Source of the DNA: Octopus sinensis
Lineage: Eukaryota
Direction of reading: 5' to 3'
Length of the DNA: 64,000 nt
Assembly: GCF_006345805.1 (NCBI RefSeq)
Contig: NC_043008.1
Location: forward strand, 48,236,001 to 48,300,000
Both the position numbers and the translations under genes were made by a program. Positions within the stretch are counted from its first letter, which is position 1. Every line of letters starts with the position of its first letter. The notes beneath the pieces were generated by a model. The model worked only from the letters and a program-made list of their open reading frames with translations, did not search any database and was not told the DNA's origin. Positions 9,853-62,607 of this stretch are shown here, piece by piece.

Positions 9853-11333
9853 AACCGATCATGTCTGGAAGCTTCCTTTCTATTTCTATCAATTGTAACA
9901 CTCCAGAATTAATTATATTCACCAAACCTTTCAGTGTTGTTCTGTTAAGGTTGATCTTTATTAAAAGAAAAGGCAACATTTCACTCTACAAAATCTGTTA
10001 AGCACAACCCAAAACAACATAATGCAACATAGAAAAACGGAAGTACCGCCATTATCACTCCCAGGGCTGATAAAAATATTACTTAATATGATGTTAACAC
10101 TACTGCAAAACTGATCGATGTCATAATGATTGAACGAGGGAATCCTGTAAGGGGTCGCTCAACACTTCTAAAAACAGCTACCAAATCCCCTTCAAATCAC
10201 ACATCTGAAACGGTGCCGCTGCTACACAAACATCGTCAACTATGTTCTGAAAAATTCCTATTAATATGATTGACATAAAAAAAAAACTGCCGACTCTTCT
10301 TTTTCACCTCAACAGCAACCAGGACAGAACCCGCTCCTCTGCAATATCAAACTCCACACCCTCCAACTTCCTCCAACTTCCTCCAACAGATACATCCTCT
10401 CCGTTTCTCATCATCTCTACTGCATCTTATCTCACAAACATAAAGGCAGATCTCAGTCATTCCTGGCCAATGTCAAAATCTTCGGCAAGTTCCTTTCTCT
10501 CCATTTCCAATAACAGTTGTCCAACACGAGAAATTGCAACTCAATATCGATCTCATTGATCAATAATTGGGGAGACCCTATAAATGTTATGACCAATAAC
10601 ATCGCATTCACTGGGGTGGAAGTACCCTGAAGTGTCACAGTGGAGTGTCGCACTGAAATACCAAAGCGGGGTTCTACAGAAAAGACCAAATGACAAATAA
10701 GGAACACATTTTGCATCAAGTTTTAAAATAAGTTTTTAAAAACTCTAAAATATATAAATTTTGTTTATTTAAAATAAAACTTTAGATGGCAATTGTTTAT
10801 CTTTACATGTAACAATTTTTTTCTGAGACTGTTAGCCATTAATATTGATTAAGTAAAGCCATAAATTGTATTTTTAAAAACCCGCGGTAGACGTAAGCAG
10901 GTCTTGTGGCGGACGGTTTCACTGCGTCTGAAGTTAGGGTCTGCAATGAGGGGGAGCTTTGCTGCTATGTCTAGTATGCTGGGCGACTACGAAGAGGCTC
11001 CGTCATTTAGTGTGTTTTAACTAGTAAAATTAATTAATCTATGAAAATAATTGCCTAATCTAATTTTTATTTTTCAAGGCACATACGATATTCTTTTAGA
11101 AGAATTTTGTTGGTGTTTCTAACAGGGTCAGAGACCACATACAGACATCTGTTTGTGAAGGTTTTTTTTAAATGAACAAAAGTGTCAAAGGGGAAGAAAA
11201 AACCCACAGAAGTTAACAGAAGAAATCAGAGCAATTATAATGAGGCTGGGAAACCATTCGGAATCAATGGGAGATGAGCCAACTCGCGAAACTGAGGCGA
11301 TATGTGTTGCATAGTGTATATAGGTGTATATAT

Positions 11334-11363
<30 letters not shown>

Positions 11364-11368
<5 letters not shown>

Positions 11369-12128
11369 ATAGTGTATGAAAACATACGGGAAGAGAAAAC
11401 CACCATGTGGATTTCTTACATGCTAAAAATGGCAGTCGAAGCCTAAAACCACGAAAGCATATTCTTACATTAAAGCACGTGACTCGTACGCGAGCAAGAC
11501 ATTTGAGTGAATAAAATATAGCGAACCTTATACTAATAAGTTTCGATATTACTGACCAAATAATTCAACTAATAAGATAATTAATTGATTATTTAATCAT
11601 CCGTAGCTCATCAGTAAGGTCGCTAATTAAATGCATAAACATAAAACTGCAATACGTAGCGAAAGCACAATGTAAAGCACAAACTCACTCAGTTCCATCT
11701 TGATTCATCCTGGATTCTTCTCTCAGAATGACCTCAAAACAACGTGCGACACCAGAGTAATACAGCAGTGAATAAATTCAAACGTAAACCTCTGGCCGAA
11801 GAATTTAAATATCTAACTTTATAAATATAAGGTTAAAAATTATTAAATAATTATTTACCAGTGGCCAGCATGAGTAAGAAGAGTCAGGAGACGTAAATAT
11901 GAGCTACGGATGATTAAATAATCAATTAATTATCTTATTAGTTGAATTATTTGGTCAGTAATATCGAAACTTATTAGTATAAGGTTCACTATATTTTATT
12001 CACTCAAGTCAACGTGATTTAATCTAAGAATATGGTTTCGTGGTTTTAGGTTTCGACTGCCATTTTTAGCATGTAAGGAATCCACATGTTGGTCGTCTCT
12101 TCCTGTATGTTTTCATACACTATTATAT
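11364..12128. mobile_element. Long inverted repeat (arms 11364-11611 and 11899-12128), likely a Penelope-like inverted pLTR insertion
   Basis: Arms are reverse complements, with the inner ~110 bp almost perfect. The left arm plus 13 bp of spacer carries a complete HHR. The left end abuts (TA)n. Confidence 0.7.
11521..11624 (-). ncRNA. Type I hammerhead ribozyme with long stem II
   Basis: ACCTTA-CTGATGA-G...(long imperfect hairpin)...C-GAAA-CT-TATT-AG-TA^TAAGGT. 6-bp stem I extendable by GCG/CGC, canonical core, GUA triplet. Confidence 0.8.
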
Positions 12129-12314
12129 TTTAAAATGTTCATGTCTTCTGACTCGTATTACCATTTTGGTAGACAACTGATGAAGAATTAGGGACCCTCT
12201 GAGTCTTATACGAATACGTTTTTTAGCTGCCGTTGTTTATTTACAATGCATTTTTTCATTTATTAAGTACCAACACACAACACACAGACGTTAACAGGCC
12301 GAGAACATCTAACG

Positions 12315-12517
12315 GGAAGGTTTACGAAAATAAACAAAAGACGAAGGCAGGTGGAATACAAACAAACAAATGTATTAGTATGGCGCTCAGGAATAGAAAT
12401 AAAACAAGTCTTTTACGTTTCGAGCCTACGCTCTTCGACAGAACGATACACAGAAAAGAAACAAGGGGAGAAAGAAGGAGAGAAAAAAATGCGTGTAGGA
12501 GCTAACGGTCTATCAAT
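12315..12517 (-). mobile_element. Short Penelope-like fragment with HHR motif (12410-12445, CUGUCGA core)
   Basis: TT-CTGTCGA-A-GAGC-GTAG-GCTC-GAAA-CG-TA^AA. Same family as 1415-1600 and 38735-38912. Confidence 0.65.
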
Positions 12518-12672
12518 ATATATATTGACAGATGATACACCTATTTGATTATGAAGATTTACAAACATACTTTCTCAGTGAAACTCAATATACCTACCAT
12601 TATAAATAATACTAAATGTTCTTTTTCGGACTTTTCATAATGTGATACAAGTCTTTGGTGTAGCAATTGCAT

Positions 12673-12764
12673 GCGGCTGAAGAGGGCTTTAAACCATCTG
12701 TTATGTCGATTATACATTGATGTAAGAATAAGCTGTTTTATAAAGCTTGAAACACGTGTACCGC
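12673..12764 (+). ncRNA. Type I hammerhead ribozyme with extended stem II
   Basis: GCGG-CTGAAGA-GGGCTTTA...TAAAGCTT-GAAA-CACGTG-TA^CCGC. Palindromic stem III ACACGTGT. Lies in a TA-flanked segment of about 280 bp. Confidence 0.75.
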
Positions 12765-12798
12765 GATATCCTTTGTGTTCTGCTTTTTATTTCATTTG

Positions 12799-12853
<55 letters not shown>

Positions 12854-19780: not shown

Positions 19781-22633
19781 ATCATCATCATCATCATCAT
19801 CATCGTTTAGCGTCCGTTTTCCATGCTAGCATGGGTTGGATGGGTCAACTGGGGTCTGTGAAGCTGGAAGGCTTCGTCAGGCCCAGTCAGATCTGGCAGT
19901 GTTTCTACGGCTGGATGCCCTTCCTAACGCCAACCACTCCGCGAGTGTAGTGGGTGTTTTTTACGTGCCACCTGCACAGGTGCCAGACAGAGCTGGTGAA
20001 CGGCCACGAACGGATGGTGCTTTTACGTGTCACCCGCTCGGGGCCAGGCGATGCTGGCAACGGACACGAACGGATGGTGCTTTTACGTGCCACCGACACG
20101 GGGCCAGACAGAGCTGGCAACCGGCCACGAACGGACGGTGCTTTTACGTGTCACCGGCACGGGGGCCAGCCGAGGCTGGCAACGGATGCGAACGGATGGT
20201 GCTTTTACGTGCCACCGACACGGTTGCCAGACAGAGCTGGCAAACGGCCACGAACGGATGGTGCTTTTACGTGCCACCGACACGGGGCCAGACAGAGCTG
20301 GCCAACGGCCACGAACGGACGGTGCTTTTACGTGTCACCGGCACGGGGCCAGGCGAGGCTGGCAACGAACACGAACGGATGGTGCTTTTACGTGCCACCG
20401 ACACGGGGCCAGCCAGAGCTGGCAAACGGCCACAAGCGAATGGTGCTTTTACGTATCACCGGCACGGGTGCCAGACGAGGCTGACAGCGGACACGAACAG
20501 ATGGGTCACTTAACCCCTGCTTTCTGATATATGATTTGATTTTGATTGTTCTCACTGGTCTTGCCGGGTCTTCTCACGCACAGCATACTTCCATAGGTCT
20601 CGGTCTCTGGTCATTTCCTTGGTGAGACCTAGAGTTCGAAGGTCGTGCTTCACCACCTCGACCCAGGTTTTCCTGGGTCTACCTCTTCCACAGGTCCCCT
20701 CAACTGCCAGGGTGTGGCACTTTTTCACACACCTATCTTCATCCATTCTCACCACATGACCATACCAGCGCAATCGTCTCTCTTGCACACAACATCTGAT
20801 TCCTCTTAGGTCCAACTTTTCTCTCAAGGTACTTACACTCTGTCGACTATGAACACTGACATTACACATCCAACGGAGCATACTAGCTTCATTTCTCGCG
20901 AGCTTACGCATGTCCTCAGCAGTCACGGCCCATGTTCACTGCCATGTAGCATGGCTGTTCGTACACATGCATCATACAGTCTGCCTTTTACTCTGAGCGA
21001 GAGGCCTTTAGTCACCAACAGAGGTAAGAGCTCCCTAAACTTTGCCCAGGCTATTCTTACTCTAGCCGTTACACTTTCAGCACACCCACCCCCACTACTG
21101 ACTTGGTCACCAAGATAACGGAAGCTATCAACCACTTCTAGTTTTTCCCCTGGAAAGTGACGGAAGTTGTTTTCTGCAGATTTTCAGAGGTTAATGCTCC
21201 CGAGCATCTGCCACATACAAAAACCATCTTCCTAGTGAGCCTTCCTATGACATTGCTGCACCTCTTATGTGTCCATAGCTTACACTTGGTGCATCTTATA
21301 GAGTTTCTACCTACACCTTTTCTACAGATCGAGCAGGGCCATCTACCTGAAGGCGTTGTGATTTGTCTACCTTCCTACTTATTACGACTTTGGTTTTAGC
21401 TAGGTTGACTCTAAGGCCCTTCGATTCTAAACCATGCTTCCACACCTGAAACTTCTTCTCCAGTTCTGATAATGACTCAGCAATTAGAGCAAGGTCATCA
21501 GCATAGAGGAGCTCCCAGGGGCATCCTGTCTTGAATTCCTCCGTTATTGCCTGGAGGACTATGATAAATAGGAGGGGGCTGAGGACTGAGCCTTGGTGGA
21601 CCCCTACCTCTACCCGGAATTCTTCACTGTACTCATTTCCAACCCTCACCTTACTAGCAGCGTCCCTGTACATGGCTTGCACAGCTCTCACTAACCATTC
21701 TTCTATTCCTAGTTTCCTCATTGACCACCATATGAGGGATCGGGGGACCCTGTCGAAGGCTTTCTCCATGTCAACAAAAGCCAGGTACATGGCCTTATCT
21801 TTGGCTAGGTATTTCTCCTGCAGCTGCCTTACCAGGAATATAGCATCAGTGGTACTTTTCCCTGGCACGAAACCAAACTGCATCTCATCTAAACTAACTC
21901 TCTCTCTAATTAGTTGGCTTATGACCCTCTCTGTAACCTTCATCACCTGATCCAACAGCTTGATACCTCTGTAATTATTTGTATCTAGGGCATCACCTTT
22001 ACCTTTGTAGCAGTTGACTATTATGCTGCTACACCAGTCATGGGTATGACTCCTTCATGTATCACCTGATTAACTATACAGGTGACTAGGCTATAGCCGA
22101 CACTACCAGATATTTTGAGCATCTCTGCAGTGATACCTGATGGGCCTGGGGCTTTCCCTGTCTTCATGCTTCTAATTGCCTTAGCTACTAAGGAACTATC
22201 AACCCTGGTAGCTGGTCCCTCTGTTGGGTCAACGTTCGGCAGACTCTCTTTATCCCATTCATTTTCTTTATTCAGCAACCTTTCATAGTGGCATCTCCAA
22301 GCCTCTCTCTTTGCATCCTCGTTTAGCGCAAGTGAACCATCTTCCATGCGAACACACTTCTCTCCCACCACATCACAATTCTCTCTCACACACTGTCTTG
22401 CAACGCGAAACACCTCCAGTCTTTGGTCCTCACGGCGCAGAACATTGGCAAATTTTTTCTTATCTGCTTCCCCTCTGGCTAGATAGACCTGTCTCCTAGC
22501 TTCCCTTTTAGCAGTCTGATACAATTCCCTGCTACCACCATTCTTCCAGTGCTTCCAAGTCTGTCTCTTTTCTCTAATAGCCCTGTCTACGACACTGTTC
22601 CACCACTACGTTACCTTGGGACGAGAGGGGACT
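19781..22633 (-). mobile_element. 5'-truncated, frameshifted RTE-clade LINE with RT domain, 3' UTR and (GAT)n tail
   Basis: ORF fragments with KAPGPSGI, QFGF.PGKSTTDAIF, FVDMEKAFDRV, GVHQGSVLSPLLF, LLYADD, FRYLG, RLRWYGHV.RM and GRGRPRKTW. No APE domain seen. (CAT)n on the plus strand at 19781-19803. Confidence 0.95.
19955..20505 (-). repeat. About 9 copies of a ~61-bp tandem repeat in the RTE 3' UTR
   Basis: Recurrent GAACGGATGGTGCTTTTACGTG(C/T)CACCG(A/G)CACGGGGCCAG...GCTGGCAACGG. Confidence 0.95.
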
Positions 22634-33995: not shown

Positions 33996-34259
33996 AAAAT
34001 GTTTCAAATGCTACAACAATGCATTTATAACACAAACAATGGCCTACAATAAACTGTTGTAATTTAACCATCCATAGTCTGATATGATATTTCGGAATAC
34101 AAATTCCTTCCTCAGATATCCCTAGGAATTGATGGAGTCACTAGCAGTGAATTTGTATTCCGAAATATCATATCAGATTATGGATGGTTAAATTCCAACA
34201 GTTTATTGTAGGCCATTGTTTGTGTTATAAATGCATTGTTGTAGCATTTGAAACATTTT
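33996..34259. repeat. 111-bp inverted repeat (33996-34106 / 34149-34259, two mismatches) with 42-nt spacer
   Basis: Direct reverse-complement comparison. Confidence 0.95.
34081..34120 (-). ncRNA. Minimal type I hammerhead ribozyme
   Basis: GATAT-CTGAGGA-A-GGAAT-TTGT-ATTCC-GAAA-TA-TC^ATATC. 5-bp stem I, 5-bp stem II, palindromic ATAT stem III, AUC triplet. Confidence 0.8.
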
Positions 34260-58254: not shown

Positions 58255-59147
58255 GTATATTTACCTATAAATAGTTCATAGACGAGAATCGGATATTCTC
58301 CGTATAGAATACACTCAGTAGTGCTCAAGAGATTTAAACTTGAGTGGGTAGAGAAGTAAATGCAGGGACAGGAAAGTTGATATACAAAAAATATTGAATA
58401 CCGTTAATAGAAAAAAATGTATATTTGGTTACAGATACAAACAGGTCTGACTTACACAGAACAGAAATGATATCAAGAATTAAAGGGGTTGAATTAAATT
58501 GGATTTGTAACACTTTTCTGTAATTCTAACCCCTTTAATTCATCATATCATTTCTATTCTGTGTAACTTGGACTTTTTTGTATCTAACCAAATATACATT
58601 TTTTCTTTTAAATGTATTAAATATTCTTTGTATACTGACTTGCCTAACTTGCTTATCATTACATTTACTCATATATATAGATATATGTAGATATATACAT
58701 ATATCACATACATATATATACATACATACACACACATATCTATACATATATTAGTTAATATGTGTGTGTGTCTGTGCACACACACACACATATATATACA
58801 TACACAAACATAACTAGTGTGTGTGTGCAAACAATTTGAAATTCTACGTTCAGTTTCTCTGTTAAAAATCACTAAACCCAAAAGGTTTAAAGATCTCCAA
58901 AGCAATGGAAACGTTAAATAAACTCGTGTTTTAATATAAACCTTGTTCTTAAATTGAAACATAAAGATGTGAGAACCAAAGAACTTTTTAATACTTTTCC
59001 CTAACAAGCATAACAAAATAATTATAACTTGTGCTTTTTTTTGTTGTCGTTTTTAACAGAATCATTAACAATTAGAAAAGACTGGAAGAAGTGAGAAACT
59101 GATTAAAAGAAAAAAAATCTTCCAAAACCAAAGATTCTCTTGTTTAC

Positions 59148-61759
59148 CTATCTAAAGCAAATTCGAGCAGATCTTCATAGCTGACACTGTCGGAGGTCTT
59201 GTAGTTGGCAGACATTGGGGAGAGATCTTCGGAACTTTCATTATCAGAGTATTTCCACCTCGAAACATTCCCAGTTTTACACCAAAATGGGTCTTGATGG
59301 TTATAGAATCCCAACTGTTCTAAATTATACTGTACCACTTGTAAACGGTACCTCCTACGTGGGAAAGTGGAACACCCAGACTGTCCTGAAATCATGCTAG
59401 ACGCCTCTCTAGAAGAAGAGTCATGAAGGGGTGGGACTAGGGAATGAGTTGAAATGGGAGGAGATAGGGAGGTTGGTGGTGTTGGTGAAGCTGATGACGA
59501 CAATGCTGGTGACGTTGGAAATGGATGTGGCGATGGTGGAGGAGGAGGAGGGGGAGGAGGTGGGGCCGTTGTCGGCATGGGGCAGTAGTCCGTTTGGCAA
59601 GGAACAAACACATTGTCGTCGTCGTCATCATCATCAGCATCGTTCTCATCAAAGTCTATTGGCGGGGGTGGAGCCGGTGGGAGAGAAGGAATATCATGCA
59701 AACAGTTAATAAAGAGGGGCCGGGGTTTGGCTGGAGAGGTAGTGGTGGCGGTGGTGGTAGTGGTAGTAGTGGTCATCACAGTGGTTGCAGCAGAGCAAGA
59801 GGCAGAAGAGTGGACGGATACAGAAGTGGAAACTCTGGAGTAAGAAGAGTCGCTATGGCGCAATAGGGGGTACTTCCTGGCCCGTGGCTTGGCGTTGAGC
59901 AGTTCATCTGGCCTCAACGGCTTACGCGGTGGCAACTGTGGTGGGAAACATTTATCTAGAGCAGGCATGCTTTCACTAGAACTGCTGTAGGTGCGGGGCG
60001 GAACCACAGGCGTGCGTCGTGGCACGAGATGAGGAGGCATTGAATCAATGATGTCACTTTTGTAGCCCCGAGACAAACTGATGGCTGCATGCTGAGAAAT
60101 TGTTGTTGTAGAAGTAGTAGTAGAGGTAGCAGTACAAGTAACAACAACAGTTGGACTAGTAAACTGTAACCTAGGCAACGGAAGAGATGGGGGTTTCATA
60201 CCTTGTCCACGCCCTCCTCGAATAGGAATGGCACCGCCACGCAGCATTCGTAAAGGGTTTGTATCAACTTCTTCATCTTCACCATTTGCAGTTGGAACAA
60301 CTTTAGTTGGAATTCCTTGTGGTTCCCTTAAATTCCGGATATGAGAGTGATCCATACTCTCAGTGGACATAGCTCGTTGGTGATCCATTGAACGCCGAAT
60401 TCGGCTCTCTCGAGCTAACTTACTCATAATTTCTCGTGGTGAAGGTTCTGCGAATTCTTCATCGAAACTCATCTTAGGTGATGAAATGCCAAATCTTTCT
60501 GAGTGGCTATCAGATCTCCTATCATAACCTCCACCTAGCTTATCTCTTGATTCTGTCTCCAAATCCCGATCCTCAACAGATCTCTCAGAACTGGATGCTG
60601 GAGAAGACTCTTTACTAAAGGAAAACGAGTCAAGACTCAAAGAATGATGTCCGTTCTCTCTATCAACACTGTGTGCTCTCTCAACAACAGGTTCTGCTTT
60701 AGGAATAGCAGTAGGGGGTGGTGGTGGAGGGACATCCATTCTGGGTAATGGTTCCGACCGTTGTTGAGATTCGGATCGTTCTAATCTAGGTGGAGACTCT
60801 TTTCTAAAAGAATACTCAATCTTAGTTGGAGGGGGAATTTTGCTGGGGTGGGGGATACGAGAAGGGTGCTCAGATTTCAGAGGATATTCAATTTTGCTTT
60901 CCATTTTCGGGAAGTCTGTTTTGGGCAAAATCTCTGGTTTAACTGCAATCTCTGGTTTACTTTGAGACTCTGACTTGATGGAAGATTCAGTTTTAATAGG
61001 GTAGTCGAATTTCGGTTCACTTCTTGACAAATGATCAGTCCTAGGGGGAGTTTCAGGAAGAGGCGGCGCTTCTTTTGGTTGGTCTATTTGTGGAACAATA
61101 TCTGGTTTGGGAGGCAATTCCGGTTTGGTTACTTCTGGCTTTGTAATTGACTCGATGCGAGGGGTAGGCTCTACTCTGTGTTCTGGACGTGGTTTCGGTA
61201 TAGGTGGTGGCTCAATTTTAGACATAGCTGCCCGGGATTTGCTCAGTGGCTTTATGTCTGAGTCTTTTCTTGTAATTGTAGCAGTGGGAAGGGTAGCAGT
61301 AGAGGAAAATGAGCTGGATTCTGGTTCTGCTTTGTTTGGAGATAATTCAGTATTAATAGTTAGTTCTTGTGAGAGAGATTCTACAGCTGGAGATGAGGGA
61401 GAGCTCTCTTTCCCTGCACCTTTCATTACAAGTATATTGTAAGCTTCTTGAGACTCTGGTGGAAGATCATCATCGAGGTCGGCTTTCATTGCAATCTCTT
61501 CAGTGAATGTCTTTTTGCGCTCCTGTTTAGGACTCCGCTTCATAGATATCTTCAATTTTTGGATGAGCTTTGGAGAGTCTGAACTGGTTTCAGATTTTGG
61601 ACTCAGTTGGTCATCGTCCATGTTCATTTTATTGCACTGCATGGCAAACTCGTTTGCTAAAGCTATGGCATTGTTAATCATTTTCTCATCATGAGCAGAC
61701 ATAGGTTTGACTTTTGCTTGCTTCTTTCCTTCAGATTTAGGCTCCCGGGGGGGAGTTTC
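59148..61759 (-). CDS. Large internal Pro/Ser-rich coding exon of an ACK-family non-receptor tyrosine kinase (kinase/SH3/CRIB exons not seen in this window)
   Basis: 883-aa ORF in the track. Acceptor ttttctatttcag|GAA at 61759 (phase 0) and donor AG|GTAAAC at 59148 (phase 2); 2612 bp. Many PxxP motifs (PPPIPKPR, PELPPKP, PPQLPPRKP). Splices in frame to the downstream UBA exons. Confidence 0.9.
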
Positions 61760-62607
61760 CTGAAATAGAAAACACAAGGATACTAAGGTACACACACATG
61801 CTTACTACACAACACTAGCACTACTTTTGGGGGTTTTATCAGCCCACAATAATCCCACAACAATACCCACACTCTATTGATATTCAAACCATTATTCTCA
61901 TCAATATAAATTTGATAATTGGTTTCTCATTCCAAAATATTGATTTTCCTTTTATTTTTACCCAACTTTTAAATGTGAAAAATATTAGAGAAGCTTTCTT
62001 TAATAAAAGAAATTAAATTTAAATAATTAAAACAAATCAATTTTTCTAGATTTGTTTGTCAATTCACAGCAAAATTGTGTGAAGGAATTGGTAGGAATGA
62101 TTTTGCAAATAGAAGTGAATTTCAATTTGAGTTCACAGAGAATATTTGGTTCTTTAGTTTAACCAGCATGGCAAAGGCAATGGTGAAGCACTGTCCTTAT
62201 TGTAAGACTTCAATTCTCTGGTTTTACTTTTTTACATTTTTTTATGTCATCTTAATTTTTAAGAAATCCAAGACTATTCTATTGTTTTCGACAACTGAAA
62301 TGGAATTGTAAGGTGAGAAGGGATATTGAAGACATGCTGAAGAGGAAAGAAATTTACAAGAAATTATGCCAAAAGAAAGAAAAGGTAAAATTCAGATGTT
62401 TAAGAAGATTAATAGGTAAAAAAACAATTAGGTGAAGAAAAATGAAGATTAAAGAATGTGGATTAGAAAGATTGACCCATTAATGAGGTGTGTTAATCTT
62501 TGTCCAAGCCAAAAAGCTAGCATTTGCCAAAATTTTGAGACATAGAACTTCAAGTCTCATTTCTATGCAAGCAGTGAATGATTATTGGCAATAATATAAA
62601 CCAGTAA

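Follow-up and report, generated by a model that had tools for sequence, protein, structure and literature searches.

What decides where the two arms of an inverted insertion are joined? The question is raised by a repeat within a 64,000-nucleotide stretch of the Octopus sinensis genome, C12:48236001-48300000 (the whole analysed stretch is called the window below), in which two copies of one element lie head to head and meet inside the CUGAUGA box of a hammerhead-like motif. An earlier examination of the letters alone, referred to here as the sequence-only reading, had seen in this a second instance of an inverted repeat broken within a ribozyme core, and had proposed that the inversion step of Penelope-like insertion recurs at the folded ribozyme, or else that self-masked insertions are retained by preference. 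We therefore consider in turn the layout of the locus, the family to which it belongs, the motif itself, and the ways in which such a pair could have arisen.

The locus and its family

The inverted repeat that had been claimed at 11364-12128 is real. A repeat search of the window resolves it into two blocks, 11364-11480 with 12012-12128 (117 nt, 92% identity) and 11503-11611 with 11899-12007 (109 nt, 99% identity), with 22 nt between the blocks in the left arm, 4 nt in the right arm and a spacer of 287 nt between the arms. These limits hold for the inverted arms, but the right arm runs 24 nt further, to 12152, in the form of a tail (Table 1). Positions in the repeat unit are given as q, which is the window position minus 11363. 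Read in the sense of the RNA, the left copy extends from q537 to q1 on the minus strand (11900-11364), with its 3' end at 11364 and no tail. The right arm, on the plus strand (11899-12152), extends from q248 to q1, through the linker, and on from q537 to q520. As the sequence-only reading had it, the right arm starts three bases into the core: it begins ATGAGC at A6 of the CUGAUGA box, where 11899 pairs with 11611, and lacks C3-U4-G5. The 5'-to-5' join of the arms overlaps by two bases, AT (11899-11900), and the outer ends of both arms are 3' ends of the element. Compared with the commonest 18-mer of the family, the tail motif has two mismatches outside the right arm and eight outside the left. 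The microsatellite next to the left copy is the likely target site; the flank on the right lacks one, and neither a target-site duplication, looked for at 11363/12153, nor an empty site could be defined. The locus has a G+C content of 33%, and no open frame in 11364-12152 is longer than 67 aa.

Table 1. Features of the head-to-head locus and its hammerhead-like motif, in window coordinates.
Feature	Position	Strand	Basis or remark
(CA)n(TA)n microsatellite	11322..11363	.	abuts the 3' end of the left copy; sequence read
Left copy, q1-q537 (537 nt of the ~543-nt unit)	11364..11900	-	other copies align to q1-537 as one direct unit
Left-arm stretch without right-arm counterpart	11481..11502	.	18-nt deletion q120-137 private to the right arm, plus flanking mismatches
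Type-I hammerhead-like motif	11524..11621	-	descriptor search and 31-copy alignment
Stem I (GACCTTA with TAAGGTT)	11621-11615 with 11530-11524	-	6 Watson-Crick pairs and one G.U
CTGATGA box	11614-11608	-	core letters read
Helix II	11607-11545	-	~60-62 nt long
GAAA	11544-11541	-	core letters read
Short palindromic helix III		-	C-TTATTA-G, then TA, in the window copy
GTA with predicted cut	11533-11531; cut between 11531 and 11530	-	core letters read
Right arm, inverted and 5'-truncated (q248-q1)	11899..12128	+	RNA sense on the plus strand; pairwise alignment
Right-arm tail, conserved linker plus q537-q520 of the next unit (24 nt)	12129..12152	+	tail motif match

An artefact of assembly, in which one copy is folded back on itself, is ruled out because the arms differ at 10 sites and by the 18-nt deletion. 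Contigs from four DNA runs (three organism labels), compared with 11100-12400, supplied letter-perfect pieces at 11629-11782, 11915-12065 and 12041-12260; no piece among them spans the 11899/11900 join with at least 31 letters on each side, the repeat itself breaking the contigs. A search of sequencing runs with the locus stretch listed no RNA run that contains it.

Pairwise alignment bears out the earlier remark that the arms are nearly identical in their inner part and more diverged outside. The inner 109 nt contain a single difference, at a CpG site, and the outer 117 nt contain nine substitutions as well as the 18-nt deletion; eight of the nine and the deletion are private to the right arm, the stretch 11481..11502 being kept in 36 of 36 other aligned copies. 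Shared derived letters make the arms sister copies: both have an additional A near q17, C at q95 and G at q158, none of which occurs in the other aligned copies. Conversion between the arms that was stopped by the deletion, error-prone synthesis and chance are all candidate causes of the unequal divergence.

When the 2.7-Gb genome (13,516 contigs) was searched with 11364-12128, the 40 scored of 310 first-look candidates gave 133 matches, and copies proved to be spread over many contigs. The best genomic matches cover q1-537 as a single direct stretch, and the right arm (q536-765) finds matches elsewhere only when taken as q1-248 in mirror image. When q1-537 was compared by BLAST with the loci that had been fetched, a recurring layout emerged which, in the q+ orientation, consists of a piece of q~440-537, a 6-nt linker and then q1 onward to a variable end. 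The linker is conserved, mostly as TTTAAA or TTTTAA. Since q~440-537 runs through it into q1 in partial tandems, the repeat is a continuous unit of ~543 nt, and q1 and q537 are therefore merely the ends of the copy that happens to lie on the left in the window. The majority of copies are either single units in direct orientation or partial tandems (for example L002, L010 and L011), and the tandems reach up to about 2.5 units in the sampled loci.

For counting, 84 independent loci were gathered with the whole repeat, with q1-117, with a 16-mer at q3-18 and with an 18-mer at q520-537, the survey covering ~130 of the candidate places, which number at least 310. The 16-mer pattern gave 36 hits against 11 for its reversed control; six of the 19 loci fetched with it (L064, L066, L068, L072, L074, L076) had no family match and were set aside as chance hits. 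Also dropped before counting were overlapping refetches (L009, L015, L019, L021, L022, L028), segmental duplicates (L016, L020 and L023 of L013; L052, L053 and L056 of L051), loci of other families (L097 onward) and one of two identical tandem copies in L062. Arms were counted only if their alignment starts at q25 or lower, which excluded fragments such as L008, L018, L027 and L043. The resulting sample comprises 104 arms, 40 of which form 20 head-to-head pairs among the 84 loci, with a different join in each. In every inverted pair the copies converge in the q+ orientation, with q1 on the outside, as expected of 5'-truncated cDNAs whose RNA sense is the minus (hammerhead) strand of the window.

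A hammerhead-like motif with a long helix II

The sequence-only reading described a full hammerhead ribozyme on the minus strand. The CTGATGA, the GAAA, the GTA site and a 6-bp stem I on which it relied are all there, and the window copy retains the conserved core C3-U4-G5-A6-N7-G8-A9, G12-A13-A14 and A15.1-U16.1 together with H17. For this copy the word "full" is nevertheless too strong. Its helix II has a C.U mismatch in the closing stem (TATC in place of the TAGC, TAGT or TGGT of most copies), its helix III palindrome is broken (CTTATTAG, compared with CTTATAAG or CTCATGAG elsewhere), and Rfam hammerhead models find no match in the window at the gathering score and none at E<=10 in 11000-12500. 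The same models give no match at E<=1 in six better-kept loci of the family either, probably because of the long helix II. What Rfam did return was confined to microsatellite-driven, miRNA-like hits, which were rejected; among them the (TG/CA)n(TA)n stretch at 11296-11366 has a mir-297/mir-466-like score below gathering and is a low-complexity artefact. In the minimum free energy fold predicted for the sense RNA (z = -4.7), the box is taken up in pairs with the region of helix III and the active hammerhead does not form, a result that speaks neither for nor against activity. The window copy has no evident present function.

A simple hammerhead descriptor picks up three motifs in the 64 kb examined; 100 Markov shuffles of the window average 0.57, with a maximum of 3. 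Among 31 aligned copies, the core (CUGANGA, GAAA, UH) is intact in 12, including the window copy, and each core letter is carried by most of the 31, as expected if these are decaying copies of a master that bore the motif. The box is CTGATGA or CTGACGA. Beyond its four closing pairs (GCTA with TAGC, TAGT or TGGT), helix II has an internal loop followed by a long hairpin rich in AT, and helix III is an 8-nt palindrome that alternates among copies between CTTATAAG and CTCATGAG.

Compensatory pairing across these relatives appears to back helices I, II and III. In the alignment 86.8% of 983 cells are paired, compared with 23-43% when the partners are slid, a figure favoured by the structure having been drawn from the same sequences. 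At columns 95/98, in helix III, 18 copies have CG and eight have UA; at columns 27/86, in helix II, 16 have UA, seven UG and three CG. Changes on both sides of a pair occupy 13 cells against 7.6+-2.0 in shuffles, four of 500 of which reach 13, again with a structure taken from the sequences under comparison.

Origin of the pair and position of the join

The locus is probably a decayed head-to-head pair left by one Penelope-type insertion at the (CA)n(TA)n microsatellite, with both cut strands of the target priming reverse transcription. In a single such insertion, one cDNA would start at the AU-rich unit boundary (q1), beside the microsatellite, and the start of the other would lie 24 nt downstream of that boundary; the RNA template would have to cross the junction between units and would therefore be multimeric or circular. 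The two cDNAs would then be joined at their 3' ends through microhomology. A purified Penelope-like element protein does cleave and extend both target strands, and it starts reverse transcription internally on the RNA, which explains the tail (PMC11167929). That priming of both strands was published for a lizard element in vitro and not for the octopus 543-nt family (PMC11167929).

Much of the evidence on initiation comes from the tails. An earlier estimate by local alignment was misled by AT-rich microsatellites and was discarded in favour of a motif test, in which q520-537 was sought outside q1 with up to four mismatches. The motif is present in 53 of 106 arms. Within the 20 pairs, exactly one outer end is tailed in 16, both in two and neither in two; if the ends were independent, 16 or more one-sided pairs would be expected with p=0.006, and this excess means that the two ends are not equivalent. 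The presence of a tail on the right arm only, together with the one-sided tails of these 16 pairs, argues for independent initiation of the two arms and not for fold-back. The same excess also counts against the simplest form of priming on both strands, since equal and independent priming predicts random tails per arm. The lack of a definable target-site duplication, the right flank without a microsatellite, the want of an autonomous partner among the loci fetched and the distribution of changes within the right arm count against the proposed insertion as well, eight private substitutions and the deletion lying in the outer half and none in the inner half. The outer ends of the tails cluster at q440-464, the commonest tail being about 75-98 nt long. 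Microsatellites occur in the 40-nt outer flank of 50 of 104 arms, compared with 68 of 455 control 40-mers from the same loci, and within 30 nt outside q1 in 38 of 53 arms that have no tail; of the 46 arms with a tail, 19 are flanked by one.

A refinement that is possible, though we hold it tentatively, gives the two starts different rules. The tailed arm would begin at one constant internal position, ~100 nt beyond the junction of the units, and the tail-less arm would begin where a microsatellite end anneals to the AU-rich junction, the junction-spanning template being a multimeric or circular RNA of the retrozyme kind. If so, every pair would carry exactly one tail and be located in a microsatellite, and the arm of 537 out of 543 nt in the window would represent one lap of the template.

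An alternative that dispenses with a second priming event is that the 3' end of a single cDNA snapped back at the 2-nt match (AT) near q248 and copied itself outward into the right arm. The two-base overlap at the join and the 99% identity of the inner 109 nt would fit such an event, as would the near-symmetric pairs found in the family at hairpin-prone stretches (66|66, 149|151, 158|157 and about 210|210). Copying of this kind predicts a mirrored outer end, yet the right arm has a 24-nt tail that is absent on the left, tails are one-sided in 16 of 20 pairs as described above, and the inverted repeat stops at the flanks, with no continuation beyond the arms. We consider this course unlikely.

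The ribozyme could also have placed the break, either because reverse transcription or the joining of strands stops preferentially at the 5' edge of the folded hammerhead or because the RNA begins there, and the join in the window would then belong to a recurrent class. Six independent copies, in the window and in L006, L031, L043, L061 and L063, do start between -6 and +3 nt of the first base of the box (L043 being outside the 104 counted arms). The ends of the 104 arms that retain the 3' end of the element were compared with an expectation drawn from the +-60-nt flanks, the intervals for the box, the whole ribozyme and the cut site having been fixed before inspection. The CUGAUGA box (q245-251 +-3 nt) holds four ends against 2.5 expected (p=0.24), the whole ribozyme (q161-258) 24 against 35.9, and the predicted cut +-5 nt three against 3.8. 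Breakage or inversion recurring in the hammerhead core, as the sequence-only reading had supposed, thus finds no support in the family: the pre-set intervals show no enrichment. An interval chosen post hoc at the 5' edge of the ribozyme, q248-257, has six ends against 1.75 expected (p=0.009, uncorrected), of which one belongs to an old, 65%-identical arm in L024; in the 38 arms obtained with two length-neutral patterns it has two against 0.9. Seven of the 40 arms that reach the box stop in the next 21 nt, and a letter-by-letter reading of the joins near the box revealed no extra G or other signature of a cap.

The dominant hot spot lies elsewhere, at q103-118 (window 11466-11481), ~50 nt 3' of the ribozyme and outside the motif. 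This interval, also post hoc, takes 22 of the 104 ends against 3.9 expected (p about 2e-10), and eight against 1.6 in the length-neutral subset. Many of its arms begin exactly with AC(G/A)TGCTTTAATG, the same hexamer, next to which comes unrelated sequence or the partner arm. Placement by the ribozyme is accordingly improbable on these counts. Truncation points in the family are broadly distributed, and a join in the CUGAUGA box is best taken as one instance among them, the ribozyme having no demonstrable part in its placing.

The repeat at 33996-34259, to which the same architecture had been ascribed, invites the same comparison. It has a hammerhead-like motif (34115-34081, minus strand) at the centre of a near-perfect palindrome. 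Among the 40 scored of 1472 candidates for its family, single-arm copies end ~25 nt upstream of the box, and many copies have two arms, with central joins that vary (nine aligned). In this short element the ribozyme occupies the very 5' end, so that any nearly full-length arm must end close to it. The likeness of the two loci is thus loose: it is real as far as Penelope-type head-to-head insertion goes, but it is no evidence for a break directed by the ribozyme.

That an inserted copy was later duplicated in part and inverted at the DNA level, through template switching in replication or repair of a break, is very improbable. The unequal divergence and the private 18-nt deletion show remodelling of the locus after it had formed, but 20 of 84 loci have pairs arranged head to head in this way, q1 on the outside, and their joins differ, and the tail of the right arm is continuous with the unit junction and was not copied from the left arm. 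Finally, a MITE, that is, a non-autonomous DNA transposon with terminal inverted repeats of ~250 bp, is suggested by the long inverted repeats, the AT-rich ends and the lack of an open frame, but it is refuted by the structure of the copies, most of which have one arm in direct orientation, form partial tandems or are paired through a different join, the 537|248 join of the window being found in none of the 83 other independent loci and target-site duplication being absent, so that the earlier preference for a Penelope-like inverted insertion, and the warning that the locus might be annotated as a MITE, were both sound.

Relatives, neighbours and meaning

If the locus is a Penelope-type insertion, which element supplied the enzyme? 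A GIY-YIG profile search of the genome scored 150 of 5029 candidates, and 147 of these exceeded the Pfam cut-off. Their open frames are up to 883 aa long, and many share the same frame of 781 aa, the recurrence of which suggests a recently active Penelope-like family in the genome. No single open frame with both reverse transcriptase and GIY-YIG lies in or beside the unit, and of the 12 GIY-YIG loci fetched from the 147 matches none shares the unit in sense orientation, so no partner was identified among these 12. L112/L121 was considered and rejected, being a diverged family copy that lies antisense beside a 186-aa GIY-YIG fragment. The copy in L121 (C4:70185500-70194500), a 59-66% diverged member of the 543-nt family, keeps a hammerhead with a stem I that is wholly different yet pairs, and its helix III reads CTCGAG.

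Penelope-like elements with an endonuclease (EN+; Penelope/Poseidon, Neptune, Naiad) offer the closest comparison for the insertions. Craig et al. describe their insertions as highly 5'-truncated and often in partial tandems, with a tail often at one end only and, in one clade, a preference for (TA)n microsatellite targets (PMC8557442). The octopus family resembles them in its 5' truncation, its partial tandems, the inverted truncated copy at the 5' end, the tail at one end, the bias toward microsatellite or AT-rich targets and the hammerhead in the repeated part (PMC8557442, PMC11167929). It differs in that the unit has no open frame for reverse transcriptase or GIY-YIG, in that its tails are ~75-98 nt long (outer end near q440) where 30-40 bp is published, and in the unusual length of its helix II, ~60 nt.

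A second comparison is with the non-LTR retrozymes of animals, tandem units of 150-450 bp that do not code for protein, are rich in AT and carry type-I hammerheads (PMC7229834), and which a preprint proposes to be non-autonomous derivatives of Penelope-like elements (preprint 10.64898/2026.07.22.740005). The octopus family is likewise non-coding and AT-rich, with a type-I hammerhead whose palindromic helix III would suit a dimer and with presumed mobilisation by Penelope-like elements (PMC7229834). The unit junction is copied through, which implies a multimeric or circular template. In contrast to these retrozymes, the octopus unit of ~543 nt exceeds the 150-450 bp reported for them (PMC7229834), and its copies are mostly dispersed, truncated and head to head instead of forming long tandem arrays.

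For the motif itself, metazoan type-I hammerheads are described as having a helix I of 6 bp and a short palindromic helix III and as likely acting as dimers (PMC4209133). The octopus motif agrees with these and with the minimal hammerheads of Penelope-like elements in CUGANGA, GAAA, the UH site, the 6-bp helix I, the G10.1 pair closing helix II, the palindromic helix III and the compensatory changes between subfamilies (PMC4209133). Compared with canonical type-I hammerheads, it is unscored by Rfam models and has a long AT-rich hairpin in helix II, and its activity is predicted.

An inverted structure produced at a target site also recalls the twin priming of L1, in which reverse transcription starts from each strand of the target and microhomology unites the products. 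There the two segments are consecutive parts of one RNA, whereas both octopus arms hold the same 3' part of the element.

The window contains other elements of note. About 400 nt to the right of the repeat lies a young, high-copy element at 12536-12853 (plus strand, ~270-317 nt), whose copies are 91-96% identical, with 2722 candidates in the genome. They have a sharp common start at 12536/12537 and are found head to head elsewhere too. It bears a hammerhead-like motif of its own at 12677-12765, CTGAAGA ... GAAA, with the helix III palindrome CACGTG. Further away on the minus strand, 21311-22054 encodes a 247-aa open frame with an RVT_1 domain (E=8e-33), and 59144-61801 an 885-aa open frame with no Pfam match.

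The locus is thus an ordinary, decayed, head-to-head Penelope-type insertion of a non-autonomous hammerhead family, of a kind already described, and one easily mislabelled as a MITE or as a gene for a hairpin RNA. To the idea that the ribozyme dictates the site of inversion, the family-wide counts say no for the 543-nt family. What is new is the addition of this 543-nt family, with its long-helix-II hammerhead, to the non-autonomous relatives of Penelope-like elements. Its copies preserve countable traces of integration steps that are poorly understood, namely one tail to a pair, a sharp clustering of 5' ends away from the ribozyme and insertion at microsatellites, and these traces stay within what published work outlines.
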